Positions 11,715-58,719 of a DNA stretch of 64,000 nt are shown piece by piece (position 1 is the stretch's first letter; every line of letters starts with the position of its first letter). The position numbers and the translations under genes were made by a program. The DNA is from Salinivirgaceae bacterium. Its GTDB lineage: Bacteria; Bacteroidota; Bacteroidia; Bacteroidales; SZUA-534. The notes beneath the pieces were generated by a model. That model worked only from the letters and a program-made list of their open reading frames with translations. It had not been told where the DNA came from and made no database searches. The stretch is from contig JAFYYA010000069.1 in NCBI GenBank assembly GCA_017557785.1, positions 4,288 through 68,287 on the forward strand, given 5' to 3'.

Positions 11715-11800
11715 GCTCGAAAAGAATGGGGTGCCGCAAGGCTGAGATTATACCCTTTGAACCTGATACGGGTAATGCCGGCGTAGGGATAAGACTCTGA
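11715..11800 (+). promoter_or_regulatory. TPP (THI-box) riboswitch aptamer
   Basis: AATGGGGTGCCGCAAGGCTGAGATTATACCCTTTGAACCTGATACGGGTAATGCCGGCGTAGGGATAAG carries all the conserved TPP blocks: GGGGUGC, GCUGAGA, ACCC, ACCUGAU, UAAUGCC and GCGUAGGGA. A further GACTCT/AGAGTC hairpin follows at about 11793-11818, before the ATG at 11873. Confidence 0.9.
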
Positions 11801-11872
11801 TTTCCAAGAGTCAAAGTATAATTCTTTCATAACCCCCATTTCAATCTTTTTACTAACTAAAAATTTTAAAAG

Positions 11873-19385: not shown

Positions 19386-19535
19386 TTTTTTAGTATTAAA
19401 ATTCTGCGCCAAAAGTAATAAATCTTTATTAGGTGTACCCGATAAAACCGCCATTCCATGGCTTTTAGTTTGATTGAGTAGCGTTTTTTGACGTCGAAAG
19501 GCTGATTTTCAGAGACAATGTGTCTTCTGCAAATC

Positions 19536-20252
19536 TCATTTTTGAGTGCAGAATTCTAAAATCCGATTCATCCCGATAATCACCAGATTCGGCTCGTACA
19601 CAACATCGGCACGGTTGACAATGGCAGCGGCCCCGCCCGTGACTACTATTTTAACATCTTGTGTCTCCGCACGATAGGCGTTTATGTAACCATCTATTTC
19701 AAACCGGACACCATTCAGAATGCCGAATTGCAAGGCATCAATGGTGCTTTTGCCCGCAAGATCTGATTTGTCGGGCACCTCAACCAGCGGCAACTTGCCC
19801 GTGAACGCGTTCAGCGCTTTTGCCCGTATTTCGGGGCCGGGCGAGATTGCTCCGCCCTGATAGACTCCATTCTTGTCTAGAAAATCGATGGTTATGGCTG
19901 TTCCCACATCGATTATCAGCACATTGCTGGCAGGAAACAGCACTTGCGCACCAACAGCAGCGGCTATACGGTCGCGGCCTAACGTCTGCGGTGTCGAATA
20001 GTTTATTTTTATCGGAAGTTTGGTTGTGGCATCAAGGCAGATGTGCGGAATGCCTTTCAACCCATCAGGCAGTTCGACTTTATCTCGTCTCGTGCTGATA
20101 CTTATTATATTATTGATGTTGTGCCGTTCGGCGAGTTGCAGAATCAGCGCCGCATCGGCTTCGGGGCTGGCCGTCTGAGCAATAATGGCACCGCCATCGG
20201 CAACTGCCACCTTGCACAGCGTGTTGCCTTCATCAATAATAAGATTGCTCAT
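19536..20252 (-). CDS. coaX: Type III pantothenate kinase
   Basis: MSNLIIDEGNTLCKVAV...GRDRIAAAVGA...LIIDVGTAITIDF...GGAISPG...VVTGGAA are CoaX/ASKHA motifs. Confidence 0.9.
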   Translation of the reverse strand: MSNLIIDEGNTLCKVAVADGGAIIAQTASPEADAALILQLAERHNINNIISISTRRDKVELPDGLKGIPHICLDATTKLPIKINYSTPQTLGRDRIAAAVGAQVLFPASNVLIIDVGTAITIDFLDKNGVYQGGAISPGPEIRAKALNAFTGKLPLVEVPDKSDLAGKSTIDALQFGILNGVRFEIDGYINAYRAETQDVKIVVTGGAAAIVNRADVVYEPNLVIIGMNRILEFCTQK

Positions 20253-20763
20253 CTTCTTTCTTTATCGCTTCAACCAGCCGGTTGAAGAAGAAAATCTTCA
20301 GATACAGTCCGTGTTTTTCAGTGTACGACAGTTTGACAGCGTAAACGCACTTGTCGTTGCCAATGGTCCATTGGCGCTCAAGGTCTTTGGCCTGGAACAT
20401 CTCCGCATCCGACTCGTCCCACTCTCCCTTGCGGTCGTCGTCGTAGCCGTATATCGCATAAAGCGAGTTGACTAACGCCTTAACGTTGGACTTTGTCACA
20501 TAGCGCGAGTTGGCTGGCAGCGTGACATTGATGTGGTTGCTGCCTACAATGTTGTCCTTATCGTTGAACAGGCGGAAAACCACCTTCTCGAACATTCCCA
20601 ACTCAACAAGCGGAAACTCCTTCTCGAACTCCACCATGAAAACGCCTTCGATATCTTTGCTCTGAATCTCGCAGTAGTCGTTGTCGGCAAAGAATTTTGT
20701 CAAATCGAACGACAACATTTCGAGAATGTTTTTTGGCTTGTTTGCTGCATCTAAAATTGACAT
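20233..20763 (-). CDS. Hypothetical protein
   Basis: 176 aa ORF that overlaps the coaX start by 20 nt. No recognisable motifs. Confidence 0.45.
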   Translation of the reverse strand: MSILDAANKPKNILEMLSFDLTKFFADNDYCEIQSKDIEGVFMVEFEKEFPLVELGMFEKVVFRLFNDKDNIVGSNHINVTLPANSRYVTKSNVKALVNSLYAIYGYDDDRKGEWDESDAEMFQAKDLERQWTIGNDKCVYAVKLSYTEKHGLYLKIFFFNRLVEAIKKEDEQSYY

Positions 20764-20775
20764 CTCTTTAATTTT

Positions 20776-21693
20776 TTAATGTTTGTTTTTTGTCAACTCC
20801 TGAAAAACTTCTTCCATCGACTTTTGTTTCACCTGCATTGCCAGCACGGCAAGATTGTGCTGCACGGCGAAGTTGAAAACATCCTGTCGCACATCGGCTT
20901 CAGAGTCCGACTCCAAAACGTATGTGCTGGCGCCCGTTTTTTCCACCGCAACAATATTAGCAATTTGTAACAACATTTTTTCATCAACAGGCAAATTAAA
21001 TTCAACTTCCACCTGTCGACGGTTGTTGCGGGTGCTGATGCCAATTTGTTCGGCACTTCCGTTTGCCACAAGAACGCCGTGGTCGAGAATCGCCATCTGA
21101 TGGCAGATGGCCTGCACTTCCTGCATGATGTGAGTTGAGAGCAGAATGGTTTTTTCGCGCCCCAGTTCAAGAATCAGGTTGCGTATCTCAACAATCTGAT
21201 TCGGGTCGAGACCGGTTGTCGGCTCATCGAGAATCAGCACTTGCGGATTGTGGATGATGGCTTGAGCAAGCCCCACACGCTGCTTGTAGCCTTTCGACAG
21301 AGCACCGATTTTTTTCCTGCATTCTGGCGCAAGCCCCGTGCGCTCAATCACTTCGCCAACCACCTTGTCGGTATTTGACAAGTGGTAGATGTTTGCAGTA
21401 TATTGCAGATATTCTTTAACATACATATCCAGATAAAGCGGATTGTTTTCGGGCAGATAGCCTATTATTTTCTTTATCTGGTTGATGTTTTCTGCCACAT
21501 CGAGCCCTTCGACCAGCACGGTGCCGCTGGTTGGCGACAACAAGCCGGTGACAATCTTCATCAGCGTTGACTTGCCGGCGCCATTCGGTCCCAAAAAACC
21601 CACAACCGTACCGCTGCCCACCGAAAACGACACGTTGTCGAGCGCTTTCTGCGTTCCGTAGTATTTTGTCAGGTTTTTAATCTCGATGGACAT
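20776..21693 (-). CDS. ABC transporter ATP-binding protein (GldA-like)
   Basis: Walker A GPNGAGKST, the signature LSKGYKQR and Walker B LILDEPTTGLD. No permease gene is adjacent. Confidence 0.9.
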   Translation of the reverse strand: MSIEIKNLTKYYGTQKALDNVSFSVGSGTVVGFLGPNGAGKSTLMKIVTGLLSPTSGTVLVEGLDVAENINQIKKIIGYLPENNPLYLDMYVKEYLQYTANIYHLSNTDKVVGEVIERTGLAPECRKKIGALSKGYKQRVGLAQAIIHNPQVLILDEPTTGLDPNQIVEIRNLILELGREKTILLSTHIMQEVQAICHQMAILDHGVLVANGSAEQIGISTRNNRRQVEVEFNLPVDEKMLLQIANIVAVEKTGASTYVLESDSEADVRQDVFNFAVQHNLAVLAMQVKQKSMEEVFQELTKNKH

Positions 21694-22541: not shown

Positions 22542-22631
22542 GGAGAAATGGCCGAGTGGTCGAAGGCGCACGCCTGGAAAGTGTGTATACCATGTGAAAT
22601 GGTATCGTGGGTTCGAATCCCCCTTTCTCCG
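22542..22631 (+). tRNA. tRNA-Ser (anticodon GGA), type II with a long variable arm
   Basis: The acceptor stem GGAGAAA/TTTCTCC has discriminator G. The anticodon stem-loop is CACGC-CTGGAAA-GTGTG, with a long variable arm and a GTTCGAATC T-loop. No encoded CCA. Confidence 0.9.
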
Positions 22632-45838: not shown

Positions 45839-46091
45839 AATTCTTACTCAAACTAAAAACGCAAACTCAAACTAAAAACTGTTTGTAAATGTGAACGCAA
45901 ACTTAAGTGAAATTTTGGGGAAAGTGAGTAACGATTGGCGGGAAAGTGAAAAAAGGCTGAAACCAGCGGAAAGTGACCATTGGTGCGGTTTCAGGCCTGA
46001 AATAGGATTTGTTAATCGTCAAATTACCATAAGATTACGTTCCTTTCGTCAAAAAACACTTGCAATTATGACATTATTATTAAGTTGATGT

Positions 46092-46099
46092 TAAATTTG
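46092..46099 (+). promoter_or_regulatory. Putative -7 promoter box TAAATTTG upstream of the CHAT cluster
   Basis: TAnnTTTG match 57 nt upstream of ATG 46156. Confidence 0.35.
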
Positions 46100-46155
46100 T
46101 AAGATTTTTGAATCGAAATGCTTTTAAAATTAAATAACGCTTAATTTATTAAACT

Positions 46156-46917
46156 ATGAAAACTCTAAATTTTGGAATGAAATTGATGGCTGCATCGTTA
46201 ATGTTGCTGCCTTTTGCGTCGAATGCGCAAAAAAACGTGAACTACAAGGTTGTGAAAGTTCAAGGTGAAATCCAACGTGTTAAAACCGGTAATCTGTTGT
46301 CGATTGGCGAAGATGTTGCCAACAACGAGAACTTCAGTTTCAAAACCAACTACTCGCGCGCCGTTGTGGTGAACAAGGAAAAAGGCTGCGTGATTCTGAG
46401 CGCCAGAAACGACAACGAAGGCTCGCAGTTCCTTCCGTCGCCTAGCAACATGAGCGTCAGAGCCGCTCTGCCGACTCAGCCATCGGAAGTTATCGAGTAC
46501 TATTATGGTGACGTGTTTGTTTCGGGCTTCGACAGTCTGAAAATCGACGACAGCAAACTGCTGATCAACGACGACAGTTATTTCACTGTAAAATACAGCG
46601 TTGACGGCAAAGACTACGCAGAGAAACTCAGTTACAAGAACGGAAAACTAGCCCTTCCGTCAAGTCTGCTTGAGAACAAGCCTGAAAAAGCCACTCTGTG
46701 CTACAACGATGAGTTTGGTGAGAGCAACAAGTCAGAGTTCACCCCTGTTTACGCTGACAAAGAGACTCTGAAAGGCGAACTCGAACTGATTTTCTCAACA
46801 ATGAAAGGCAAACGCAACGCGAAAGTTTTGTCGTCGGCAACCTTTGTTAACGATTTCTACGGAAAAACCACTGAAGAAGCCGTTGATGCTTGGATAAAGA
46901 ATAATATGAACAAATAA
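46156..46917 (+). CDS. Exported hypothetical protein (possible FecR-like N-terminal beta domain)
   Basis: Signal peptide MKLMAASLMLLPFASNAQ. VVKVQGEIQRVKTGNLLSIGEDVANNENFSFKTNYSRAVVVNKEKGCVILSA loosely resembles the FecR sensor fold. Otherwise unrecognised. Confidence 0.55.
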   Translation: MKTLNFGMKLMAASLMLLPFASNAQKNVNYKVVKVQGEIQRVKTGNLLSIGEDVANNENFSFKTNYSRAVVVNKEKGCVILSARNDNEGSQFLPSPSNMSVRAALPTQPSEVIEYYYGDVFVSGFDSLKIDDSKLLINDDSYFTVKYSVDGKDYAEKLSYKNGKLALPSSLLENKPEKATLCYNDEFGESNKSEFTPVYADKETLKGELELIFSTMKGKRNAKVLSSATFVNDFYGKTTEEAVDAWIKNNMNK

Positions 46918-46936
46918 TTGGTTGATAATGAACCAA

Positions 46937-46973
46937 AATGCCCGATTGTATGATGCAGCCGGGCATTTTTTTT
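46937..46973 (+). terminator. Hairpin plus T8: terminator or attenuator between gene A and the TPR-CHAT gene
   Basis: AATGCCCG (46937-46944) pairs with CGGGCATT (46960-46967) around a 15-nt loop. A run of 8 T follows (46966-46973). Confidence 0.5.
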
Positions 46974-46983
46974 AAATGTGTGT

Positions 46984-49900
46984 ATGAATAAATTTCTTCC
47001 GATTCTGATTTTTTCGATGGCACCACTGACGTTGCTCTCACAAACGTGCAACGAGAAGGAAGCCATAAAAAACTTTACCGCAGCCCAGGAAACCGAAGAC
47101 TCGGAATCCGCTGTTCTGTTTGAAAAAGCCGCCGAAGGATTCAAGTGCTGCAAGCAGCACGACAACTATCTGATTTCGGCTTACCAGTCGGGCGTCGCCT
47201 ATTTCAACATCGGCAATTTGGACAAGGCGCAGACTGTGCTCGAGCAGAGCCTTCAGGACACCAAAGGGCTGACAGACTCAACAGCGGAAGTAAACATGCT
47301 GATTTACCACACATTAGGCGAAGTCTACTACGGAATCAAAAATGCCGAGCGCTCGGTGTTCTACTACAAAAAGGCCGTCGGGATTCTTGGAACCGACGAC
47401 TCGGAAGAACTTGCCATCTGCCTTTTCAACATGGGCAACTCTTACGAGATGCTGTCGCTCTACGCCGATGCGATTGGCTGCCACCGGAAATCAATCGAGA
47501 TGAAACGGAGGCTTGAGATTGCCGACAGTAGCGACTATTACCAGGCCTATTCGACACTTGCCGACATCTACCAGTCGGTTGGCAAGAACGACTCATCGGA
47601 TTATTTCTACCGGATGGCCGGTAAGTTCACTGACACCAACGACTCGGAATCGGCCGCGTTTATAAAATTCAAAGAAGCACAGAAAAACTACGACGGCAAG
47701 AACATGAAAGCCGCCGAAGCACTGTTCGACGAAGCGCGGAACATTTGCGAGATTGCCAATCTGCGGAACGATGTTTTTGTCGGCTCGTGCCTTTATTTAG
47801 GATTGATTTATGAAAGCGACGGAAATCAGAAAAAGGCTAGCAACATGTTGGCGAAAGCCGCTGAATATCAGAAAGAAAAGAACGACACTTATTACAACAT
47901 CCTGTTAGCGCAGGGCCGCATTGAAAAGGCTGACAATCAGAGCCAAGCCATCGAAAAACTCAATAAGGTGGTGGCCGAGTCGAAAAACAGCGAACTTGTT
48001 AATTTGGCCCGCATCGAACTTGCGAAAAGTTATGAAGCAAGCAATCCGGCACAAGCCAAACAACTTTACAATCAGGTGGTTGCAAGCGTCGACAGCACAT
48101 CGCAGACTATAATCTACGTGCAGGCCCTGTGCGGACTTGCCAGCATTGAATCGCAGGAAGGAAAAGGCGACAAGGCCATCAGCAGCCTGCTTCGCGCCAA
48201 AAAGACTCTTGGCGGAAAAGACCCCGAATTTGAAGCGAACATCTACGAACAGATTGGAAACGAATACTTTAAGCAGAGCAACAACGAGAAAGCGCTTATG
48301 AACTACCGCGAAGCCGCAAGCATACTGTCAAAAACTTTCGGGAAAGGCAGTGTGAAAACCATGTCGGCTGAAGAAAACGTGGCAACCGTGCTGATGGACG
48401 ACGAGAAATTTGCCGAAGCCGCTGCAAAATACGAACTGAGTTTGGCAATTAAATCGAAGGCTCTTGGCGAATACAATCCGCAACTTGTTGATTTATACAG
48501 CAACTACGGCAACGCTCTCTGCAATATGCGCAACTACGAAAAAGCCGGCGATGTTTATGCAAAATGCTTGCAGATAATTGAAAAAGAGAACATTGCCGAC
48601 ACCCGTCTTGATGTTTTCTACAACAACTACGGACTATACTGCAAAACCATTGGCGACTACAAGAGCGCCCTGACCTACACCGAGAAATCGTTGAATGCCA
48701 AAGAGAAAATCTATGGCAAGGAAAGTGCAAAATACGCCAACACGCTCAACAACCTTGGCACCATCTACGACAAACTTGGCAACTTCAACAAATCGGCTGA
48801 ATGCTTTGAGCAAGCCGAGTTGATTATGGCAGAAGCCGCTTCGGGCAATGTTGAAGCCGTAAGCGAAATCTATATCAACAAGGGTAACCTTTATAACCGG
48901 TTGGGCCAAAACGATTTGGCATTGACTTATTACAACAAGGCTCTTGAAGTGAAGACTGAGAAAAACAACGCCAGCGACAAAAAACTTGCACCAATCTACA
49001 ACAACATCGGAACTGTGTGCCAAAACATTGAAGATTACCGACTTGCTCAGTATTATTTCAAAAAATCGCTCGACATTACGCTGAAATACGGCGGCAAGGG
49101 CACGCAGGAAGCGGCTGAAGCCTACAACAACCTTGGAAACGTGATGCTGAAAACCGGTAAAACCCGCGAAGCGATTGACAATTACTTGAAAGCCAGCAAC
49201 ATCTACAATAAAATACCAGCGGTGAACCCCGTGCTGATTGGCAACACCAACAACAACATTGCAGCCGCCTACCAGCAGTTGAACCAATTGGATTCGTCGC
49301 AGTTCTACTATCGCAAATCAGTCGACCTGTACAAGAATGTTTTTGGTGCTAAACATCCGCACTTAGCGTTGATATACAATAACATAGGCAACATCGACTT
49401 GAAACTTGAAAAGTATGCCGATGCTTTTGCCGACTACAGTTTGGCCATTGAGTCGAACCACGAAAATTTCAACTCAAAGAAAGACTCACTGCCCAGCCAG
49501 TCTGGCTATTACGACCAGAGCACGTTTGTAAACTCGCTGCTTTTGCGGGCTTCGGCATTGGCAACAAAATTCATATCGTCGCGCAATGTGGCCGACCTGA
49601 AATATGCGTTCAGGCACTATCAATTCTGCGACGAGATTATTCTGAACATGCGTCGTTCGGCACTGACCAAAACTGACAAACTCGAACTCGGAAAATTAGC
49701 AGCCAAATGCTACGAAGGTGCTTTGGAAGTCTGCGCAGAACTTCTGAACAGCAAACTGACCGACCGCCAGCGTCGCTACTATCAGGAACAGGCGTTTACG
49801 TTTGTCGAGAAGGGCAAGTCGAACTCGCTGCTCGAGTCGATGGCCGGACAGGACGCCATGCAATTGGCCAACATCCCGGCCGATGTTCAGCAGAAAGAGA

Positions 49901-51237
49901 ACCAGTTGTCGGCTGATGTGCTTTACTACGAGCAATTGTTGGCCGAAAAGCCGAAAAATGCGGCGCAGATTCGCGACAGCCTATTGAACGCCAACAAAAA
50001 GCACGATGCATTTGTCAAGAAACTCGAAAAACAATACCCAGAGTACCATCAACTTAAATATGCCGACAACGTGGTGAGTCTGAACGAGTTGCAGCAGAAA
50101 CTGCAGCCAGGCACGCAGTTGCGGATGTATATGCTCGGCAACGATGCCGTCTATGCCGTTCTCATCACAAACTCACGGTTCGACATTGTGATGAGCCCCG
50201 CACCACAGAACATTTCCGACACCGTGCGGCAATACCGCAACTCGATGATTCAAAGTTCGCAGAAAGCCACAATGGATTTCAGCGTGCTGTCGCGACGGTT
50301 CTACAAGATGCTGTTTGCCGACACGCCCGCCGACGATGTGAAACGGTTGGTTGTGGTGCCCGACGGTGTTTTGAACCAAATTCCGTTTGAGAGCCTTCTG
50401 ACCAGCGACATTCAAGGCTCGGTCTACAACTATCAGGACTACGATTTCCTAATCAAAAAATACTCTGTAAGTTACGCCTATTCGGCCACACTCTACTACC
50501 GCGACATCACACGCAAGAAGGACAACGGGACAAAAGGTTGGTTCGGCTTGGCGCCAGTATTCACGCAAGGCAAATATTCGGGCGTGGTGCTCGACAGCCG
50601 TATCAAAAAAAACGAAAAGACTTTTACCGACATTCCGGTTGTGAGCAACAACAAACTTGAGCCGCTGCCGTCGTCGGAACCCGAAGTGCGCAACATCTTC
50701 TCGATGTTTGTCAAAGCCGGTCAGCCTGCAAGAGCCTGCCTGTGGGGCAGCGCCAACCGTCAGAATTTCAACAGCGACTCGGTGTCGCGCTACCGCTACA
50801 TTCACCTTGCCACACACGGATTTGTCAACTCTGAGAATCCCGAACTGTCGGGTGTGCAACTGAGTCAGTTGCGGGGCGACAACAGCGACGGCGTGCTCTA
50901 TTCGGGCGACGTGTACGGCTTGAAACTCAATTGCGACCTTCTGATTCTGTCGGCTTGTGAGACCGGATTGGGCAAGATTATGAAAGGCGAAGGAATTGTG
51001 GGCCTGTCGCGTGCGTTCATCTACGCCGGCAGCCGGAACCTGCTTGTATCACTTTGGAAAGTGGCCGACAACTCAACATCACAGATGATGGTGGAATTTT
51101 ACCGTCAACTGCTGCTAAAGGAAAACAGCGAACTTAATTACGCCGAGATATTGCAAAAAGCGAAACAGATGCTAATATTGGACAAGAATTATTCGCGTCC
51201 ATACTATTGGGCACCATTCATATTGATAGGCGACTAA
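46984..51237 (+). CDS. Exported tetratricopeptide-repeat protein with a C-terminal CHAT (caspase-fold) peptidase domain
   Basis: Signal-like N-terminus MNKFLPILIFSMAPLTLLSQT (ORF-track 46978 is GTG; ATG at 46984). About 900 aa of TPR follow, with recurring NNLG/YNNIG..Y......A..YY.KAL units. The C-terminus reads YIHLATHGF (His codon 50815-50817) ... DLLILSACETGLG (Cys codon 50956-50958), the CHAT His-Cys dyad. Confidence 0.85.
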   Translation: MNKFLPILIFSMAPLTLLSQTCNEKEAIKNFTAAQETEDSESAVLFEKAAEGFKCCKQHDNYLISAYQSGVAYFNIGNLDKAQTVLEQSLQDTKGLTDSTAEVNMLIYHTLGEVYYGIKNAERSVFYYKKAVGILGTDDSEELAICLFNMGNSYEMLSLYADAIGCHRKSIEMKRRLEIADSSDYYQAYSTLADIYQSVGKNDSSDYFYRMAGKFTDTNDSESAAFIKFKEAQKNYDGKNMKAAEALFDEARNICEIANLRNDVFVGSCLYLGLIYESDGNQKKASNMLAKAAEYQKEKNDTYYNILLAQGRIEKADNQSQAIEKLNKVVAESKNSELVNLARIELAKSYEASNPAQAKQLYNQVVASVDSTSQTIIYVQALCGLASIESQEGKGDKAISSLLRAKKTLGGKDPEFEANIYEQIGNEYFKQSNNEKALMNYREAASILSKTFGKGSVKTMSAEENVATVLMDDEKFAEAAAKYELSLAIKSKALGEYNPQLVDLYSNYGNALCNMRNYEKAGDVYAKCLQIIEKENIADTRLDVFYNNYGLYCKTIGDYKSALTYTEKSLNAKEKIYGKESAKYANTLNNLGTIYDKLGNFNKSAECFEQAELIMAEAASGNVEAVSEIYINKGNLYNRLGQNDLALTYYNKALEVKTEKNNASDKKLAPIYNNIGTVCQNIEDYRLAQYYFKKSLDITLKYGGKGTQEAAEAYNNLGNVMLKTGKTREAIDNYLKASNIYNKIPAVNPVLIGNTNNNIAAAYQQLNQLDSSQFYYRKSVDLYKNVFGAKHPHLALIYNNIGNIDLKLEKYADAFADYSLAIESNHENFNSKKDSLPSQSGYYDQSTFVNSLLLRASALATKFISSRNVADLKYAFRHYQFCDEIILNMRRSALTKTDKLELGKLAAKCYEGALEVCAELLNSKLTDRQRRYYQEQAFTFVEKGKSNSLLESMAGQDAMQLANIPADVQQKENQLSADVLYYEQLLAEKPKNAAQIRDSLLNANKKHDAFVKKLEKQYPEYHQLKYADNVVSLNELQQKLQPGTQLRMYMLGNDAVYAVLITNSRFDIVMSPAPQNISDTVRQYRNSMIQSSQKATMDFSVLSRRFYKMLFADTPADDVKRLVVVPDGVLNQIPFESLLTSDIQGSVYNYQDYDFLIKKYSVSYAYSATLYYRDITRKKDNGTKGWFGLAPVFTQGKYSGVVLDSRIKKNEKTFTDIPVVSNNKLEPLPSSEPEVRNIFSMFVKAGQPARACLWGSANRQNFNSDSVSRYRYIHLATHGFVNSENPELSGVQLSQLRGDNSDGVLYSGDVYGLKLNCDLLILSACETGLGKIMKGEGIVGLSRAFIYAGSRNLLVSLWKVADNSTSQMMVEFYRQLLLKENSELNYAEILQKAKQMLILDKNYSRPYYWAPFILIGD

Positions 51238-51252
51238 AAACAAACAGCGAAG

Positions 51253-53286
51253 ATGATATGTAAAAAACTGATGTTGTGTGCGTTGGTTATCGCCGCCGGG
51301 CCGTTGGCCGGACAGGCGCAAACCGATTTGTTTCCCGAGTTCACAGGCTCGGTGACCAACGTCGCAATTACGCACAACGGCGACAAAGTGGTGTTTATTG
51401 GTGAGAAAGGTGAAGGAAAAGGAATTTTTGAATCAGTTAAAGTGAACGGCAAATGGGGTGACCCGATGTCAATTCCGGTGCTGAGACCAATGCTCGAAAA
51501 TCAGATTGGCGGGTTCTCGTTCAACCACGATGGCACGTTGCTGCTTTTCCACGCCAAAACCGGCAAATCATTCGACATTATGTACGTTACGTTCAACAAC
51601 GGCGAATGGGGCAACCTGACCCGGTTCGACGAGCCGGTAAACTCGCAGGACGATGAGTTCTCGCCGTCACTGTCGGTCGACGACCATTACATCTTCTTCC
51701 TGCGGCCGAAACGTCAGATTGAGAAAACAGATGAAGAGTGCAAAGAGATTGTATTGTACAGCCGCCAGAGCGACGGAACTTGGGTGGGACCGCACGAGAT
51801 TCCACGCTTCTTCAACAGCGGTTGTCAGGAAACCCCTTACTTGTGCGCCGATGAGAAGACACTCTTTTTTGCATCGCGACGAGCCGACACAACGCCCGAA
51901 GGCAAAAAACTGCCCGACGATGTCTACAACATCTATCACACGCAGCTGATTTCGGAAGAGATTTACGAAAACGGTTGGACCATACCGAAATACGTGAGCA
52001 GTCTGAGCACAAGTTACAACGACCTCTCGCCGCAGATGACCACCGACGGCAGCATAATTAAAAACACCAATCCGAAGAAGGCAACAAAGAAGCAGCCTAA
52101 CAAAACCTACATGTATGCCGCTTCCGATGATGTGAAACCCAAACCGACAATGCAACTCTTCGGCGTCATCAGCGACCGCGGGACAAAAGAGCCCGTAAAA
52201 GCGCAAGTGGTTGTGTCAGACATGATTACGTCAGCCGTTCTTGGCACTTACACAACCGATGACAATGGACGCTACTCAATCTACCTTGGCGAGAACGGAA
52301 ACTACAAGATTGACTGTTTCAAAGAAGGCTTCTCACACTCGTATCACTACGAAAGAATCGGCTATTTCACCAAAAACATTAAAAAACAATTCGATACAAC
52401 CATCTTCTCGACTGTCGAATTCGATTTGAACGTGTTCGACGAAGAAATTTACAATCCGCTGTCGCCGAAAATATCGGTTTACGACTCAACAACCAGCGAG
52501 TTGCTCATCGACAGCCTGCAACCCGTCGAATTGGGAAAATACAAGAGCCGGTTCAACATCGGAAAAACCTACAAGGTGCACATCGAAAGCCCGTACTACA
52601 AACCGCAGGACATCTTTCTGAACACCATTGCCGACATTTTCTACAATGAGTTTGAAGAAGATGTGGAACTAAGCCCGCTGAAGACAGCGATGGTTCTTGA
52701 TGTTGACGCCGGTCAGGGCGGCGATTCGGTGATGGTGAAGGTTAAGAACTTGAGCCGCAACGAAACCCGCACCGTAGTTGCCAAGCGCGACAAGGACGGT
52801 AATCTGATTGTCGAACTTCGCGAAGGCGACAGTTATGAGATTGACGTGGCCAAAAAGGGTTACACCTACAGCAGCACGAAAGTCGATGTGTCGAAATCGA
52901 AAAAAACGCAGAAGCTCAACATCAAACTCGACCTGCTGACGAAAGACACGAAGATGACATTCAAGAACATAACGTTTGAGATCAATTCATCGGAACTGAA
53001 CACTGCATCGTATGCCGAACTCGATAGGATTATCGAGTTCCTGAAACTCAACGACAATGTAAAAATAGAGCTTTCGGCGCACACCGACGATTTAGGCTCT
53101 GAATGGTACAACATGCGCTTGTCGGAAAAGCGTGCGCAGATGGCCGCCAAATATCTGACCGACAACGGCATCAGCGAGCGAATGATCCGGACCAAGGGCT
53201 ATGGCGAATCGAAACCCATTGTGCCGAACACATCGGACGAGAACCGCGCGCAGAACCGGCGTGTTGAAATCAAGATTATCGAATAA
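51253..53286 (+). CDS. Exported PD40/TolB-like repeat, carboxypeptidase-regulatory-like beta-sandwich and OmpA_C peptidoglycan-binding protein
   Basis: Signal peptide MICKKLMLCALVIAAGPLAGQAQ. The N-terminal segments are WD40-like (PD40), with repeated ...FSPSLSVDDHYIFF / ...TPYLCADEKTLFFASRR motifs. The C-terminal OmpA domain reads FEINSSELN...AHTDDLGSEWYNMRLSEKRAQMAAKYL...GYGESKPI...NRRVEIKI. Confidence 0.85.
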   Translation: MICKKLMLCALVIAAGPLAGQAQTDLFPEFTGSVTNVAITHNGDKVVFIGEKGEGKGIFESVKVNGKWGDPMSIPVLRPMLENQIGGFSFNHDGTLLLFHAKTGKSFDIMYVTFNNGEWGNLTRFDEPVNSQDDEFSPSLSVDDHYIFFLRPKRQIEKTDEECKEIVLYSRQSDGTWVGPHEIPRFFNSGCQETPYLCADEKTLFFASRRADTTPEGKKLPDDVYNIYHTQLISEEIYENGWTIPKYVSSLSTSYNDLSPQMTTDGSIIKNTNPKKATKKQPNKTYMYAASDDVKPKPTMQLFGVISDRGTKEPVKAQVVVSDMITSAVLGTYTTDDNGRYSIYLGENGNYKIDCFKEGFSHSYHYERIGYFTKNIKKQFDTTIFSTVEFDLNVFDEEIYNPLSPKISVYDSTTSELLIDSLQPVELGKYKSRFNIGKTYKVHIESPYYKPQDIFLNTIADIFYNEFEEDVELSPLKTAMVLDVDAGQGGDSVMVKVKNLSRNETRTVVAKRDKDGNLIVELREGDSYEIDVAKKGYTYSSTKVDVSKSKKTQKLNIKLDLLTKDTKMTFKNITFEINSSELNTASYAELDRIIEFLKLNDNVKIELSAHTDDLGSEWYNMRLSEKRAQMAAKYLTDNGISERMIRTKGYGESKPIVPNTSDENRAQNRRVEIKIIE

Positions 53287-53301
53287 CAAAAACCGACCGA
53301 G

Positions 53302-55476
53302 ATGAAACAGTATATTGCACTTATAATCAGTCTGCTGATTGGCATTCAGGCATCAGCGCAAAAGTACAAGGACGTGTACGAGAACATCAAAAAACTCTCG
53401 GACAACGAAGCCTATCAGGAACTTTATGATTTCTCGCAACAGCACAACAACGCACACTCGGCGTCGCTCTACAAAATGGCGCTGATTCTTGAGCGCAGAA
53501 TCGAGATGTATGACCCGTTCCTGCAGGAAAGGGTTGTGTCACAGAACCTTTACAACGCCGAGCTCTACTTCTCACTTGCAAAGATGAACCTGAACGAGAA
53601 GGTGGCACGGCAAGACAGCCGCTTCTTTGACGATGTGGTGGCCGCCAACCCCAAGAAGGATCCTAACTTTTCGGAAATCAGCGATGCTGTCGACGGGCAC
53701 ATCAAAAAAATAAAAGCATTTAAAGCCATATTTAACGAAAACCGCAACAACCTTTACAGTGCTGCGACAAAATACAACGAGTGCATCAGAATCTACAACG
53801 AGATCAATCAGAAAAACAGCAAGTTGAAGGATCTTTATTTTTTGGTTGACAACAATTTCGAGAAACAACTCAACGAACTCAAAACCAATTTCGACTCAAC
53901 GCTCTACTACCTTGAGAAACTGAAAGTGTCGCTCAAAGAGCATCCGATGCACAAATACACATTCGAGTACAATCTGAACCCGATTTTGATATACAGAATG
54001 CATGGCCTGACACAGGCCAACTTCCTGGCCCCGACCATCGAACTTTGGGATTTCAATCTTTGGATAAAGACATTCAACGATGTGTATACCAACGAGATAA
54101 CCTATCTCTACAAGAACATCGACGAAACCGACACGCAGAACCGCAAATATGTTGATGCCCTGGGAAAGAAACAGATTGACAATGTGCCGGAAAACTACCG
54201 GGTTTCACCTTATCTGATCAACAAAATCTTCAAATACGATTACGAGTCGCTGGCCAACTCGCTTCTGCTTTATCAGGAAGCGCAGGTCCGCTATATGTAT
54301 CAGTTGGCTTCATATCGCCCTGACACCAACTTCGTCGCATTTGGCGTCAACTATCCGGCTAACGACCATTTCACAAAGGCTCTTGAGCGCCGCCGTGCAA
54401 CCGACTCGCTGCTGGTGCTGCTCAACGACAACATCAGCGCGGAAGGTGTAAAAAAATACAGCGACATTTTTGAGAAAAAGTATAAAGGCGAAAAGGGACT
54501 GAAGGAATACACTAAAAATGAGCAGGTATTTAATAATAAAACTTTTGACGCGGCCGTCAACGATTTTGCCGATCGTTTGCTCACAATGGGTTCTTGGCAA
54601 GCCGACAACTCGCAGACACTAAAATACAATGGTGATGTGCTATATGCTCAAATGACGCCATCGGAAAAATTCCATGACAAGGGTTATTATGTTCATTGCA
54701 AGCAGATTGTTGACAAAAGTACCGTTCTGGTTGGCGGCACTTACGTGGACAAGAGCGGCGGACAGACTGCCTTTGTGGCGTCGGTTGACACTCTGCGGAA
54801 AATCAACTGGCTCAAGACATTCAAGCCGGGCGAAGGAAACCGCTCGTGCATGCTTATAAGCGTGGCCAACAACGAGATTGCCGCTGTGGTGACATCAACA
54901 ACGAAAGCCGGTGCCATCCGTAATTTTGTGATTCTGCTCGACAATGCCGGAACTCAGAAAATGACGGCCGAAACGAAGTCGAAGGCACTGCCGCGCAAAC
55001 TGATTGCCGACGACATCAGCGGAAAATACATTGTGGTGTTCAGTGGCACCAAGCGTCAGCAGTTTGCCAACGAAGATTGCGAGATGCACATCTGCTGCCT
55101 CGACTCAAAACTGAAAACCGAGTGGGACAAACAATTGAAATTCAGCGGATATTTCTGCAACATTCTGCGCACTGACAATGTCTACTACGTCATGGGCAAA
55201 TTCAACAAAATTCACGGTCTCGACAATAAGGATGTCGATCTTGGAAGTGGTTCGGGAATGTTCTGCTACTCAATAGGCAGTGACGGCAACTGGCTGAAAG
55301 GCGAGAACCACGAATTGGACAAACCAATTTACCCGATGTGGATTTCGAAATGCGACAACACAACATTTGAAGTGGTGTCTGCACTTGACAAAGCACCCGA
55401 AAGCAAGCCGGTGAACGCAGCCTATATGCGGTTCACGTTCGACGGCAAGGAAACATTCAACAGTATTGGCAAGTGA
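53302..55476 (+). CDS. Exported hypothetical protein (alpha-helical N-half, beta-rich C-half)
   Basis: Signal peptide MKQYIALIISLLIGIQASAQ. 724 aa with no recognised domain. It starts 15 nt after the OmpA-family gene. Confidence 0.55.
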   Translation: MKQYIALIISLLIGIQASAQKYKDVYENIKKLSDNEAYQELYDFSQQHNNAHSASLYKMALILERRIEMYDPFLQERVVSQNLYNAELYFSLAKMNLNEKVARQDSRFFDDVVAANPKKDPNFSEISDAVDGHIKKIKAFKAIFNENRNNLYSAATKYNECIRIYNEINQKNSKLKDLYFLVDNNFEKQLNELKTNFDSTLYYLEKLKVSLKEHPMHKYTFEYNLNPILIYRMHGLTQANFLAPTIELWDFNLWIKTFNDVYTNEITYLYKNIDETDTQNRKYVDALGKKQIDNVPENYRVSPYLINKIFKYDYESLANSLLLYQEAQVRYMYQLASYRPDTNFVAFGVNYPANDHFTKALERRRATDSLLVLLNDNISAEGVKKYSDIFEKKYKGEKGLKEYTKNEQVFNNKTFDAAVNDFADRLLTMGSWQADNSQTLKYNGDVLYAQMTPSEKFHDKGYYVHCKQIVDKSTVLVGGTYVDKSGGQTAFVASVDTLRKINWLKTFKPGEGNRSCMLISVANNEIAAVVTSTTKAGAIRNFVILLDNAGTQKMTAETKSKALPRKLIADDISGKYIVVFSGTKRQQFANEDCEMHICCLDSKLKTEWDKQLKFSGYFCNILRTDNVYYVMGKFNKIHGLDNKDVDLGSGSGMFCYSIGSDGNWLKGENHELDKPIYPMWISKCDNTTFEVVSALDKAPESKPVNAAYMRFTFDGKETFNSIGK

Positions 55477-55505
55477 ACACCATCACAAGTGTCTGAAAGC
55501 AGTTT

Positions 55506-58500
55506 CTAAATCCTGATACCAATCACCAGAATATCGTCAATCTGATCGGTGTTGCCCTTGAACTCAAGGTGGATGCGGTTGAGTTCTTCGCCCTGCTGTT
55601 CCATCGGCAGAGTCCACAACTCGAGCAGGTGACGTTTGAACCGCGCCTTCATAAATTTCTTCTGTCCGTCTTCGCCACCGAACTGATCGCAGTAGCCGTC
55701 AGAGAAGAAGTAGTAGCAGTCGCCATTCTGCACGTCGATGGTCTGTGTGGTGAACATAATGCCCGATTTGTACTGGTCTGACAGGGCGCACGGGAATTTA
55801 TCAACCTTGAACTCATTCAACTCGCCGTTGCGTATCTGCAGCAGCGAGTTGTAGGCACCGGCGAACATCAGTTTTCCATTTTCTTTGTCGATGGTGAGCA
55901 TGCAGATATCCATACCATCTTTGGCCGCGTTTTCGCCTTTGTCGGCAAACGAGCGCACCACGCTTGCGCGAAGGTCGTTCAGAATTGCGCCGGGATCGAT
56001 GATGCCGCGCACTTTGACAATGGTGTTCAGTGAGTTCATGCCCAGCATACTCATCATTGCACCCGGAACGCCGTGGCCGGTGCAGTCGGCAGCGGTGATA
56101 ATCAGCTTGTTGTCTTTTTCGGCACACCAATAGAAGTCGCCGCTCACAATGTCGCGCGGTTTGAATAGGATGAACGACTCGCTTACGTAGTTGTTCACGA
56201 AATCGGTTTTCGGCAGCGACATACGCTGGATTCGTGCGGCATAGTTGATGCTGTCCGTCAGCGAATGGTTCTGCTCTTCAATCTTAACCAACTGTTCGTT
56301 GATTTGCTTTGTCTGGCGCTTCACTTCAAGGTCAAGCAGACGGTTGCGCTCTTTCAGTTGGTAGGTGTAGTATTTGATGATGCCAAAGACAGCGGCCACC
56401 AGCAGCAGTACATAAAAAATGTAGGCCACCACCGTGCGGTACCACGGCGGGCTGATGGTGAACGACAGTTCGGCGGTATCGCTCTCTTCGCCCAATGCGC
56501 TCACAGCCTTCACCATAAAGGTGTAGGTGCCTTCGGGCAGATGGGTGAACACAACCGAGTCGGCGCCTGTAATCTGCCAATCGTCAATGTATCCTTGAAG
56601 CGTGTATGAGAATTTGATTGATTCTGAATTTGGGAACCACGGTGCCGAGAAGGTGAACGTCAGCGTGTTGCGGCTGAACGGCAATTTAAGCCTGTCTTCT
56701 CTGATTGAGAGTACTGAGTCGTGGCTCACAAGCCTGCGGATGATACTGTAGTGCGGCGTCGACTTGATTACCGAAGAGTTGTCGCACAGAACAAGGCCTT
56801 CAGTGGTGCCAACCCACACCTGGCTGTTGTTGTTGGTGTAGATGGTATTGACTTTCCCGGCATCGAGCGCACCGAATTTCCGTGTGTGCAGCACCGTGTC
56901 ACCATCAATGTAGAACGATATGTCGGACCCGCGCGACAGCCATGTGATGGTGTCGTACTGCTTCAGCAGGTAGATGTTTTTCACAAGGTTGAGCTCTGCA
57001 TCGTCGAACAGGGCAATGGCCATATACTTGAGAGAGTCGGCCATTCTTTCGGCCATCTCTTCCTGACTGATATACTTGTAGATATGGTCTTTGTTGAGCA
57101 GATATACCGTGCCGTTATATTTCAGCGGCGATGTCATTCCTTCAACAATACCATTGATCTCATTGAAAACTAGCGGTTTCCAGTCGTCGCCATTGAACAG
57201 AATTCTGACGTAGCCTTGATTGCTGGTGCCGAGCCAGACCGCAAGGTGGCCGGCCGTGTCGATCTCGGTTTCCATACGGTTGAAACTATAGTTATCGGCC
57301 ACTACATCGAACATATTCACCCATAACCCATATTCGGCAATGTACTCAAAATACGACAGTCCACGCGTGCCGGCAGACAGAAGAACGTCCTTGTCGGCGC
57401 AGAACGACACGCAGCGTGCGTCAGCATCCGAAATCTTTTCAAATTTCCGGTTAGCCTGCATTCGGTATAGTCCGTCGTCGGTGCCGATGAACAGCGAGCC
57501 GTTGCCTTCATCCATCGACCAAACCGCCTGACGGATGCTCTCAACTGGTGTAAACAGCGGTTCGGTGAAGTCGGTCAGTTGTTTGTTCTGTACAAACAAG
57601 CCTTCCGATGTACCGACAAACAGCAGACCATTGTACTCATAAATGGCGTTCACGCTGCCGCTGATGCCGCTTTCCGCCGCAAAAACCGAGACGAAAAGGT
57701 TGTTCGACAGAAGGGTGATGCCCATTTTTGATGTAAACCAGATGTTACGCTCACGGTCGCAGAAAAGACTATTTATCTCGTTATAAATCAGTCCGTTCTT
57801 TATGTTTTTATGAAGCACGACTGTACCGTCGGTCTTTATCACCAGAATGCCGTTGTCGTACGAGCCCAGAACAAGAGTGGTGCTGTCGGGCATTACGCAA
57901 CTTGTCACACCGAAGCCAATTTTCTTCAGCGATTTGTTCAGTTTCGACGGGTTAGGCTTGACAACGTCGTTTTCCAAAACCCACGTTCCGTCTTCATAAC
58001 TTATAATCAACGATTTGCCATCTTCAATGGGCATGATGCCGAAGATGCCGATGTTGGCAAAGATCTCGCCGCCCGTAACCATTTTAATTTCGTTCGAGTC
58101 GATGCGCGCAAGTCCTATCTCGCGTTGGCGCACATAGAGTGACCCGTTGACACAGAACGAGTTATGGAAGAAAGTCTCAGCTTCAATGATGGTGATTTCC
58201 GAGCCATCGTAAACAAAAATGTAATCGGAACTTTGAAAATAGACCTTTCCGCTTATTTCATAAATGTTCCAGACATCGGAAAACGGGAAGATGTATTCGC
58301 GGATGCTGTCGGCAAGCGAAACATAGTTATACCGCGAGCCGGTATTGTCAGTTATAAGGAAGCCGAAATCGTTCTGTGAACCCACAAAAATGGTGTCGCC
58401 CGATTCCGATGGCAGTATCGATTTCACCCATACGCCCAGTTTCACTTCGAGCCTGTTCCAAACCTTGCCGTCGAATTCCCAGATGGCATTGGCCGAGCCG

Positions 58501-58670
58501 AAATACATCATTCCAAAGCGGTTTTGGGCAATGGCGTAATTCTCAACATCATAGTTTTTGCCATAGTCTTTAGGCCCGTAGTTCACCGGCGAGTAGTTCT
58601 TGATTTGCGCCTGTGCGCTTGCAGCCATCGCAATAGCAGCCGCCAAAACAAAAATTTTGAGTGCTCTCAT
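55506..58670 (-). CDS. Periplasmic beta-propeller/Y_Y_Y sensor, TM helix, coiled coil and PP2C (SpoIIE-type) phosphatase
   Basis: Signal peptide MRALKIFVLAAAIAMAASAQAQ. About 700 aa of two-component-regulator-propeller-like repeats are followed by an Ig-like Y_Y_Y segment (FSYTLQGYIDDWQ). Next come the TM helix VVAYIFYVLLLVAAVFGII and a coiled coil. The PP2C motifs are SGDFYW, AADCTGHGVPGAMMS, DGMDI and SDGYCDQ. The start was moved to ATG 58668-58670. Confidence 0.85.
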   Translation of the reverse strand: MRALKIFVLAAAIAMAASAQAQIKNYSPVNYGPKDYGKNYDVENYAIAQNRFGMMYFGSANAIWEFDGKVWNRLEVKLGVWVKSILPSESGDTIFVGSQNDFGFLITDNTGSRYNYVSLADSIREYIFPFSDVWNIYEISGKVYFQSSDYIFVYDGSEITIIEAETFFHNSFCVNGSLYVRQREIGLARIDSNEIKMVTGGEIFANIGIFGIMPIEDGKSLIISYEDGTWVLENDVVKPNPSKLNKSLKKIGFGVTSCVMPDSTTLVLGSYDNGILVIKTDGTVVLHKNIKNGLIYNEINSLFCDRERNIWFTSKMGITLLSNNLFVSVFAAESGISGSVNAIYEYNGLLFVGTSEGLFVQNKQLTDFTEPLFTPVESIRQAVWSMDEGNGSLFIGTDDGLYRMQANRKFEKISDADARCVSFCADKDVLLSAGTRGLSYFEYIAEYGLWVNMFDVVADNYSFNRMETEIDTAGHLAVWLGTSNQGYVRILFNGDDWKPLVFNEINGIVEGMTSPLKYNGTVYLLNKDHIYKYISQEEMAERMADSLKYMAIALFDDAELNLVKNIYLLKQYDTITWLSRGSDISFYIDGDTVLHTRKFGALDAGKVNTIYTNNNSQVWVGTTEGLVLCDNSSVIKSTPHYSIIRRLVSHDSVLSIREDRLKLPFSRNTLTFTFSAPWFPNSESIKFSYTLQGYIDDWQITGADSVVFTHLPEGTYTFMVKAVSALGEESDTAELSFTISPPWYRTVVAYIFYVLLLVAAVFGIIKYYTYQLKERNRLLDLEVKRQTKQINEQLVKIEEQNHSLTDSINYAARIQRMSLPKTDFVNNYVSESFILFKPRDIVSGDFYWCAEKDNKLIITAADCTGHGVPGAMMSMLGMNSLNTIVKVRGIIDPGAILNDLRASVVRSFADKGENAAKDGMDICMLTIDKENGKLMFAGAYNSLLQIRNGELNEFKVDKFPCALSDQYKSGIMFTTQTIDVQNGDCYYFFSDGYCDQFGGEDGQKKFMKARFKRHLLELWTLPMEQQGEELNRIHLEFKGNTDQIDDILVIGIRI

Positions 58671-58719
58671 TGTCTGAAAATTATCTACCAAAGATGCACA
58701 AATTTATTTACAATCGGGC

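Follow-up and report, generated by a model that had tools for sequence, protein, structure and literature searches.

A predicted exported TPR-CHAT caspase-fold protease and an unannotated partner family in a composite four-gene cluster of Salinivirgaceae

We analyzed a 64,000-nucleotide stretch of DNA from a Salinivirgaceae bacterium (GenBank assembly GCA_017557785.1, contig JAFYYA010000069.1, positions 4,288 to 68,287 of the forward strand), referred to below as the window, whose numbering is used throughout. It carries four co-directional genes, here called P1 to P4, and the product of the second is predicted to be an exported TPR-CHAT caspase-fold protease. The main interest of the cluster lies in P1, because members of its family occur near exported caspase-fold proteases and membrane sensors, an association that had gone unnoticed. 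An earlier sequence-only reading of the DNA had placed the four open reading frames at the coordinates given here, which were borne out, and had treated them as a single module. That view did not hold. The quartet is a composite in which P3-P4 is an independent, more widespread pair and P1 belongs to a much broader family. The genes of the locus are as follows.

46156-46917, + strand: P1, 253 aa, predicted to be exported, of an unannotated family; beta-rich domains, then a C-terminal three-helix region
46984-51237, + strand: P2, 1417 aa, predicted exported TPR-CHAT caspase-fold protease with a signal peptide and no lipobox
51253-53286, + strand: P3, 677 aa, predicted to be exported; probable PD40-type beta-propeller, CarboxypepD_reg domain (CRD) beta-sandwiches and OmpA_C
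53302-55476, + strand: P4, 724 aa, predicted to be exported; helical N-terminal domain (residues ~20-430) and C-terminal beta-propeller (~439-720)
55506-58691, - strand: sensor phosphatase, 1061 aa; periplasmic Reg_prop/Y_Y_Y part, one transmembrane segment and cytoplasmic SpoIIE/PP2C domain (Pfam)

In the window, 15 nt separate P2 from P3 and P3 from P4; across all lineages the spacers measure 7 to 27 nt. P4 ends 29 nt from the stop codon of the convergent phosphatase gene; the window distances had been read correctly before. The P2 frame has an alternative start, a GTG at 46978. The Reg_prop/Y_Y_Y sensor part of the phosphatase is predicted to lie in the same compartment as P1 to P4.

P2 and the export signals of the quartet

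P2 is a CHAT caspase-fold protein with an intact His-Cys dyad and is predicted to be a peptidase. Its two recognizable regions are as follows.

47086-49458, + strand: TPR array of P2, residues ~35-825 (Pfam TPR_12, ten matches, E = 4.6e-75)
50290-51234, + strand: CHAT domain of P2, residues 1103-1417 (PF12770, E = 2.7e-55)

The CHAT match scores 188.3 bits against a cutoff of 24, and Pfam also places TPR_1/2/8/10 and TPR_MalT on the protein. The dyad consists of His1278 (HLATHG, codon 50815-50817) and Cys1325 (LSACETG, codon 50956-50958). Both residues are invariant in eight orthologs that are 43-69% identical and are kept in two homologs that are 32-38% identical in the CHAT region, so the TPR-CHAT architecture and dyad codons proposed from the sequence were confirmed by Pfam and by conservation. 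A single-sequence PDB search with the CHAT region found nothing. With a profile, the best PDB match was 8rot_B, a 991-aa "CHAT domain-containing protein" (E = 4.6e-4), which is DdvA of Myxococcus xanthus; its LATHG and AACEGG motifs (H862/C907) align with the P2 dyad. Chains of Csx29 from Craspase came next, at E ~0.01.

DdvA is a transmembrane anti-sigma factor whose periplasmic part is a TPR-CHAT region with H862/C907 (PMC11506125). It is proposed to cleave itself on receiving a signal, a periplasmic protease acting in signaling rather than in killing, and it has been reported in Myxococcota and one Comamonas species only (PMC11506125). Like DdvA, P2, whose export is predicted, would place a TPR superhelix in the periplasm, with a dyad-bearing CHAT domain after it. 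DdvA differs in its transmembrane-helix anchor, its cytoplasmic zinc-binding anti-sigma domain and its extracytoplasmic function (ECF) sigma factor partner, whereas P2 would be soluble after signal peptide cleavage, has about twice as many TPRs and lacks a sigma or anti-sigma neighbor. The earlier description of the operon as an uncharacterized system stands in part. Literature searches turned up no account of this operon, of either the P1 or the P4 family, or of any CHAT protease that is both soluble and exported, but a periplasmic TPR-CHAT protein is not unprecedented, because DdvA has one. What appears to be new here is a TPR-CHAT caspase-fold protease in a soluble periplasmic setting with new partners.

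P2 also resembles Csx29 of the type III-E Craspase and separase in its TPR-CHAT architecture and caspase-fold dyad. In those systems the protease is latent and regulated, and securin, a pseudo-substrate of separase, offers an analogy for P1. Unlike P2, however, both are cytoplasmic, under the control of either RNA-guided Cas7-11 or the cell cycle. The window contains no gRAMP, Csx30/31 or STAND/AAA NTPase neighbor of P2.

L053 (7698-10604) and L054 (26-4654) encode more distant TPR-CHAT proteins of ~970 aa that, like P2, have Q-rule signal peptides (see below) for export. At its C-terminal end, the L053 protein has a hydrophobic segment (…WWLWTLMLAVILGIAAVRRLRDK) that is probably a membrane anchor, and the L054 gene adjoins a divergent proA, as in the window.

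Signal peptides had been proposed for all four proteins. They were read by hand from the N-termini and then checked for conservation in orthologs. Each N-terminus runs from a short basic n-region through a hydrophobic core to a small-x-small site, and the next residue is Gln; cleavage (marked by a slash) is predicted at SNA/QK in P1 (...FASNA/QKN), LLS/QT in P2, GQA/QT in P3 (...LAGQA/QTD) and ASA/QK in P4. The pattern, including Gln at +1, is kept in every ortholog (8 to 11 further loci), in agreement with the proposal. Such a Gln at +1 after cleavage is what the Bacteroidetes "Q-rule" describes for substrates of signal peptidase I (PMC5837995). None of P1 to P4 has a second hydrophobic 19-mer, a lipobox or a match (Pfam, NCBIfam) to the T9SS (type IX secretion system) C-terminal domain (Por_Secre_tail/CTD).

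The mature N-terminus of P2 carries a conserved Q-x-C-N (window 47044-47055, residues 21-24) in nearly all orthologs; in L014 it is Q-C-N. P2 was considered as a lipoprotein and rejected, since the Cys comes after the conserved Gln and the residue preceding it varies (T, N, D, G, P or Q). This Cys might pair as a disulfide with a conserved FKCCK segment. P3 was likewise rejected as a lipoprotein, having the signal peptidase I site AGQA/Q without a lipobox Cys. Together, the N-termini lead to the prediction that P1 to P4 are four soluble periplasmic proteins, one of them with a non-covalent tether to peptidoglycan.

The P1 family and its genomic neighborhoods

P1 has no match in Pfam or NCBIfam. 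Its AlphaFold2 model (mean predicted local distance difference test score [pLDDT], 74.7) shows beta-rich domains followed by three C-terminal helices. Foldseek searches of PDB and BFVD with P1 gave no specific fold, only generic Ig-like sandwiches with template modeling scores of 0.26 or less. A faint FecR-like segment had been suspected in P1. This idea was rejected: neither P1 nor any of 42 family members had a Pfam FecR match at E ≤ 1, and neither a PDB profile search nor Foldseek returned FecR.

A word-indexed search found relatives of P1 in Salinivirgaceae only. A profile search of 1.84 billion representatives yielded 452 P1-family clusters, defined at 50% identity, at E ≤ 1e-3, of which 174 reach E ≤ 1e-10. 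With few exceptions the members are 250-290 aa long, and the named ones come from metagenome-assembled genomes (MAGs) of Bacteroidota, Bacteroidales and Ignavibacteria. Across 42 members at 20-38% identity, the motif P-x-x-N-[IVM]-S-[STV]-R is at least 90% conserved; a second motif, FYGK...W, is C-terminal. The Arg of the first motif is Arg102 in P1, and it falls within a low-confidence, disordered loop (residues 96-105), the sole internal segment of the model with pLDDT below 50.

46459-46461, + strand: Arg102 codon of P1, the Arg of P-x-x-N-[IVM]-S-[STV]-R; a candidate site for recognition or cleavage by a protease

The surroundings of P1-like genes were taken from nine individual look-ups. 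Seven independent contexts outside the quartet are as follows.

L032: exported WD40-Peptidase_C14 protein and CHASE2 protein near a P1-like gene
L034: CHASE2 protein directly upstream of a P1-like gene
L039: Y_Y_Y-SpoIIE phosphatase 3 kb from a P1-like gene
L056: exported WD40-Peptidase_C14 protein, two P1-like genes, a TPR protein and a guanylate-cyclase domain
L056, farther on: PD40-CRD homolog of P3, and a third P1-like gene directly 5' of a Y_Y_Y-SpoIIE phosphatase
L057 (Ignavibacteria): exported 1076-aa TPR-CHAT protein and, in divergent orientation, a CHASE2 gene with three P1-like genes after it
L040 and L041: nothing comparable near the P1-like gene

An exported caspase-fold protease thus lies within 10 kb in three of the seven contexts (L032, L056 and L057), and each of these proteases carries a Q-rule signal peptide. 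Three contexts (L032, L034 and L057) have a CHASE2 protein, and two (L039 and L056) a Y_Y_Y-SpoIIE phosphatase. Caspase-fold protease genes are assumed to be present in few copies per genome. The protease count, a plain tally from a small sample rather than a statistical test, suggests proximity far above chance expectation.

Several details of these loci concern the P1 family itself. Tandem copies occur as pairs in several Salinivirgaceae lineages and in L056 and as three copies in the Ignavibacteria locus (L005 1947-3593, L008, L010-L012, L044-L048, L056 9132-10828 and L057 9989-12395). The basic residue of S-[ST]-R is kept in every tandem copy, as Lys in one. The third P1-like gene of L056 (17284-18092) is split over two frames, by a frameshift or an assembly error, and the phosphatase after it (18173-20831) is 27.6% identical to the window phosphatase over ~800 aa. 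In L032 (6302-9990) and L034 (8331-10574), the P1-like and CHASE2 genes are joined by further small genes whose products look exported or lipoprotein-like and give PKD and lipocalin-like matches as well as weak VWA ones; BLAST shows no homology between the two sets.

Caspase-fold domains fused to CHASE2 or repeat sensor modules are known from cyanobacteria (PMC2853523), and orthocaspases cleave after basic residues (PMC6426788). The adjacency of P1-like genes to WD40-Peptidase_C14 and CHASE2 genes recalls orthocaspases and metacaspases. These, unlike P2, carry Peptidase_C14 rather than CHAT, and they have not been described as exported, as anchored to peptidoglycan or as having a P1-like partner.

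Within the quartet, transcription signals set P1 apart from P2 to P4.

46092-46099, + strand: candidate -7 promoter box TAAATTTG, matching TAnnTTTG, 57 nt 5' of the P1 start
46936-46973, + strand: terminator-like hairpin with U8, probable attenuator between P1 and P2

The box upstream of P1 is the sole match in 45839-47000 to TAnnTTTG, which we take to be the Bacteroidetes promoter consensus; none lies between P1 and P2. The hairpin (46936-46968, plus T8 at 46966-46973) has a folding energy of -21.2 kcal/mol (z = -3.3), and its U-tract ends 10 nt before the P2 start. A simple terminator scan did not pick it up, although folding shows it clearly. In line with the earlier reading of a hairpin at this place, a hairpin and U-tract are found at the same position in nine orthologous loci, with compensatory substitutions in the arms (GGCCUGAUUGU/ACAAUUGGGCC in L013 and AUGCCUAAUUGU/ACAGUUGGGCAU in L014). 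Because the only -7 box lies 5' of P1 and the hairpin with its U-tract follows P1, we infer read-through transcription of P2 to P4 and an excess of P1. Such an excess would fit the tandem amplification of P1 in other lineages.

P3-P4 and the composite quartet

P3 contains a canonical peptidoglycan-binding domain of the OmpA_C type, with binding predicted, as had been read from the sequence.

52972-53259, + strand: OmpA_C-like domain of P3, residues 574-669 (Pfam OmpA, E = 2.5e-23)

The domain (PF00691) scores 82.7 bits against a cutoff of 27.2, has the peptidoglycan-binding motif HTDDLG...LSEKRA (TDDxG...LSEKRA) and matches Pal, OprF, YfiB and the PorE C-terminal domain (6top) in PDB. Pfam also identifies a CRD at residues 302-362, which had been missed. 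The PD40 repeats that had been assigned to P3 received indirect support only. Pfam gave no direct PD40 match even at E ≤ 10, and a PDB profile search with the N-terminus gave only insignificant TolB (E ~0.1) and FGF matches. Orthologs of P3 have "faint" precomputed PD40 matches, and the L056 neighbor protein, which has PD40 (E = 6.6e-16) and a CRD, matches the hidden Markov model (HMM) of the P3 N terminus at E = 2e-15. With this transitive support through L056, the N-terminal half of P3 is probably a PD40-type beta-propeller. No TPR was found in P3. A longer, second P3-like gene lies 6 kb downstream of the quartet in L009 (18537-21017, - strand); it matches the P3 N-terminal HMM at E = 1.5e-16, ends in OmpA_C and may be a paralog of the PorE/CHU_0125 type.

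P4, like P1, matches no Pfam or NCBIfam family, and the earlier statement that the two resembled nothing recognizable held in Pfam, NCBIfam and PADLOC, with only generic Foldseek matches. The AlphaFold2 model of P4 (pLDDT 88.7) consists of an all-helical region (~20-430) and a beta-propeller (~439-720). Foldseek matched the propeller alone, and generically (CylK at E = 3e-8, neuraminidase and GH43 propellers); the helical domain had no Foldseek match.

In its order of propeller, CRD and OmpA_C, P3 resembles PorE (Porphyromonas gingivalis PG1058) and CHU_0125 (Cytophaga hutchinsonii), multidomain Pal-like periplasmic proteins whose OmpA_C domain binds peptidoglycan (PMC12773672, PMC7192894, PMC5891637). 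P3 falls far below the NCBIfam cutoffs for both (PorE, NF052230, 113.8 versus 600; CHU_0125, NF053607, 136.2 versus 620), lacks their N-terminal TPR and is not a lipoprotein. It is always paired with P4, for which no counterpart has been described for PorE or CHU_0125. The resemblance raises the idea of a T9SS accessory or cargo-processing set with P3 as a PorE paralog. Its basis would be the shared domain order (PMC12773672), the sub-threshold PorE match (114 bits) and a weak PorW/SprE match of the P2 TPR region in NCBIfam. We regard it as highly improbable: the scores are far under the curated cutoffs (114 versus 600 for PorE, 40 versus 250 for PorW/SprE), no Por_Secre_tail is present in P1 to P4, P3 has neither the lipoprotein signal nor the TPR of PorE, and no T9SS genes lie near the locus. 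The earlier expectation that the unannotated proteins would fall outside a characterized pathway such as T9SS cargo processing thus agrees with the lack of a T9SS C-terminal domain and of any family match.

Orthologous loci were found with tblastn and four custom HMMs. As had been anticipated, the four genes occur together outside this genome. The complete order P1-P2-P3-P4 is present in ~16 separate contigs of Salinivirgaceae-like rumen and gut MAGs, with sheep, yak, buffalo and horse as hosts, in at least three flanking contexts, and it extends to a distant lineage (L036/L037) with identities of 40% for P1, 36-55% for P2, 49% for P3 and 37% for P4. Two short contigs show the same order as far as they reach (L050, P1, P2 and half of P3; L051, P2 and P3), and their P2 proteins are 39-40% identical overall to that of the window. 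The quartet is flanked by proA in the window, by SusD-like/Lipid_bd...EptA/PAP2 genes in L002 and by phosphatase...GidA in L036. Since the flanks differ between lineages, the quartet is held together by more than frozen synteny. In the window and in seven further quartet loci, the Y_Y_Y-SpoIIE phosphatase gene faces P4 convergently; in L036/L037 it lies upstream, in the same orientation.

The P3-P4 pair is also found on its own, in ~17 loci from termite-gut "Prevotellaceae" and Tannerella MAGs and one Prolixibacteraceae MAG, with spacers of ~10-150 nt. None of those with enough upstream sequence has a CHAT or P1-like gene upstream of the pair; the genes there are unrelated. In two termite-gut MAGs, three co-directional genes of ~350-420 aa each, with signal-peptide or lipoprotein-like N-termini, lie directly 5' of P3-P4 (L025 4094-7692 and L029 428-4025). 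In the Prolixibacteraceae locus L003, which has no CHAT gene, a PDZ/Peptidase_S41 C-terminal processing protease (57-1667, - strand) divergently adjoins P3; it may replace the CHAT protein as periplasmic protease partner, or the arrangement could be coincidence.

Comparison with a near-identical strain (L042) separates the same two halves. P1, P2, proA and the phosphatase differ from their L042 counterparts by a synonymous divergence (dS) of 0.03-0.23, whereas P3 and P4 differ by 0.65-0.81, with a ratio of nonsynonymous to synonymous divergence (dN/dS) of 0.10-0.13. Correspondingly, nucleotide identity between window 51400-55600 and L042 12270-16496 is 77-90% over P3-P4, and 91-99% over P1, P2 and the flanks. 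Over the locus, dN/dS is 0.05-0.13, indicating purifying selection. From the combination of high dS and low dN/dS, the P3-P4 block was exchanged by recombination while under purifying selection. Diversifying selection on P3-P4 was rejected, the divergence being that of an imported allele.

Both observations, the stand-alone pair with its varied upstream genes and the replacement of P3-P4 only, would be expected if the transcript merely joined two unrelated modules, a P1-P2 system and a separate Pal/PorE-like envelope pair. We consider this explanation rather improbable. The P2-P3 junction, at 7-27 nt, is kept wherever a P2 of the 1417-aa class occurs, down to 39-43% identity and across three flanking contexts, and L056 independently unites a caspase-fold protease, P1-like genes and a PD40-CRD homolog of P3.

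The locus is chromosomal, apparently vertically inherited and set amid housekeeping genes, and is unlike a defense island or a mobile element. By Pfam, the flanking genes encode a 7TMR-HD protein, a YggS-like pyridoxal phosphate (PLP) protein, ProA, a FeMo-co-type protein and UvrC; no sigma factor genes are among those scanned. No integrase, NTPase, nuclease, mobile-element or defense genes were seen among the neighbors in the window. The GC content of the locus is unremarkable. PADLOC returned nothing specific for it, only generic TPR and MotB similarities, and Rfam found no known RNA element in or around the operon at E ≤ 1.

This setting bears on the suggestion that the cluster is an envelope conflict system (anti-phage, abortive infection or contact-dependent killing) whose CHAT protease executes envelope damage or death. 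Conflict systems such as Craspase make prominent use of CHAT and caspase-fold proteases, and typically join caspase-fold domains to TPR or WD40 sensor arrays. The replacement of the P3-P4 allele between strains would also be in keeping with conflict. DdvA controls a CBASS/CRISPR island (PMC11506125). We nevertheless judge this explanation very unlikely, given the generic PADLOC result, the housekeeping neighbors without an integrase, NTPase or nuclease in view, synteny that is stable across a family-level clade, the dN/dS values of 0.05-0.13 and the ordinary GC content. An exported CHAT module anchored to peptidoglycan, as proposed in the sequence-only reading, remains the prediction; the suicide or conflict function attached to it finds no support in the housekeeping context and purifying selection.

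Two elements elsewhere in the window are unrelated to the operon: a thiamine pyrophosphate (TPP) riboswitch at 11717-11806 (+ strand; 60 bits, above the gathering score), just 5' of an 807-aa open reading frame (11873-14296), and a tRNA gene at 22542-22631 (+ strand).

A proposed mechanism and its meaning

Our preferred reading, held tentatively and with less than even confidence, is that the cluster encodes a periplasmic proteolytic signaling module made of two sub-modules, in which regulated proteolysis of P1 is docked to peptidoglycan. Terminator attenuation would keep P1 in excess over P2 to P4. P1 would be the substrate, or a securin-like pseudo-substrate regulator, of a latent P2 protease whose TPR array may sense an envelope cue or serve as a scaffold. 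P2 would cleave P1 in the Arg102 loop; this site is suggested by an invariant Arg in a low-confidence loop and by the cleavage of orthocaspases after basic residues. The adjacent PP2C-type phosphatase might then detect processed P1 through its periplasmic sensor domain, with a CHASE2 protein replacing the phosphatase as reader in other lineages. The P3-P4 pair, two beta-propeller proteins of which one is predicted to bind peptidoglycan, would dock the system to the cell wall. The output is likely to be envelope homeostasis or stress signaling, not cell suicide.

Several points weigh against this signaling reading. The localization of P1 to P4 depends on signal peptides read by hand. CHAT specificity is not uniformly for Arg, as Craspase cuts Csx30 after a hydrophobic residue. 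The P1-like genes of L040 and L041 have no protease or sensor within 10 kb, the distant exported TPR-CHAT genes of L053 and L054 stand without P1, and about half of the quartet loci lack the phosphatase within 10 kb. Finally, P3-P4 occurs without P1-P2 in ~17 loci, so docking is not obligatory for that pair.

The same genes could instead serve housekeeping envelope proteostasis or cell wall remodeling. In NlpI-Prc and LbcA-CtpA, a TPR adaptor works with a periplasmic protease at the cell wall; there the protease is a separate S41 serine protease, and the substrates are peptidoglycan hydrolases. Neither pair has a sequence relationship to this cluster. By analogy, P2 would act at a Pal/PorE-like P3-P4 tether to degrade peptidoglycan hydrolases or misassembled envelope proteins, and P1 would be an abundant adaptor or substrate with no role in signaling. 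The chromosomal housekeeping context and purifying selection suit this explanation, as does the S41 protease that stands divergently beside P3-P4 in L003 in place of a CHAT gene. P3 also resembles the class that includes CHU_0125, whose deletion compromises outer membrane integrity (PMC5891637). However, a proteostasis role leaves unexplained why P1-like genes lie near CHASE2 proteins, Y_Y_Y-PP2C sensors and a guanylate-cyclase-type domain, and the cluster contains no peptidoglycan hydrolase gene. On balance we think it a somewhat unlikely alternative.

The neighborhoods of P1-like genes allow the signaling reading to be extended, speculatively and with low probability, to the family as a whole. 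P1-like proteins would then be the hallmark pro-ligands of an unrecognized extracytoplasmic protease-ligand-receptor pathway in the Fibrobacterota-Chlorobiota-Bacteroidota (FCB) group. Exported TPR-CHAT or WD40-Peptidase_C14 proteases would cleave them at the invariant Arg, Y_Y_Y-PP2C phosphatases or CHASE2 membrane sensors would read the product, and in Bacteroidales the peptidoglycan-anchored P3-P4 propeller pair would be the docking platform. If true, bacteria would have their own counterpart of Spaetzle/Toll-type extracellular proteolytic signaling.

CHAT proteases are understood almost only as cytoplasmic executioners, such as separase and Craspase, and the single periplasmic CHAT protein that has been studied is membrane tethered and of unproven activity. 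An operon for a soluble exported TPR-CHAT protein would be a tractable entry to the roles of caspase-like proteases in the bacterial envelope. It supplies a candidate substrate, apparently made in excess, a predicted peptidoglycan anchor and a linked sensor phosphatase, and it offers a first functional context for two sizeable unannotated families, P1-like and P4-like. More broadly, the neighborhoods of P1-like genes suggest that caspase-fold proteases, CHASE2 proteins and PP2C sensor phosphatases form one extracytoplasmic signaling neighborhood in Bacteroidota and Ignavibacteriota.

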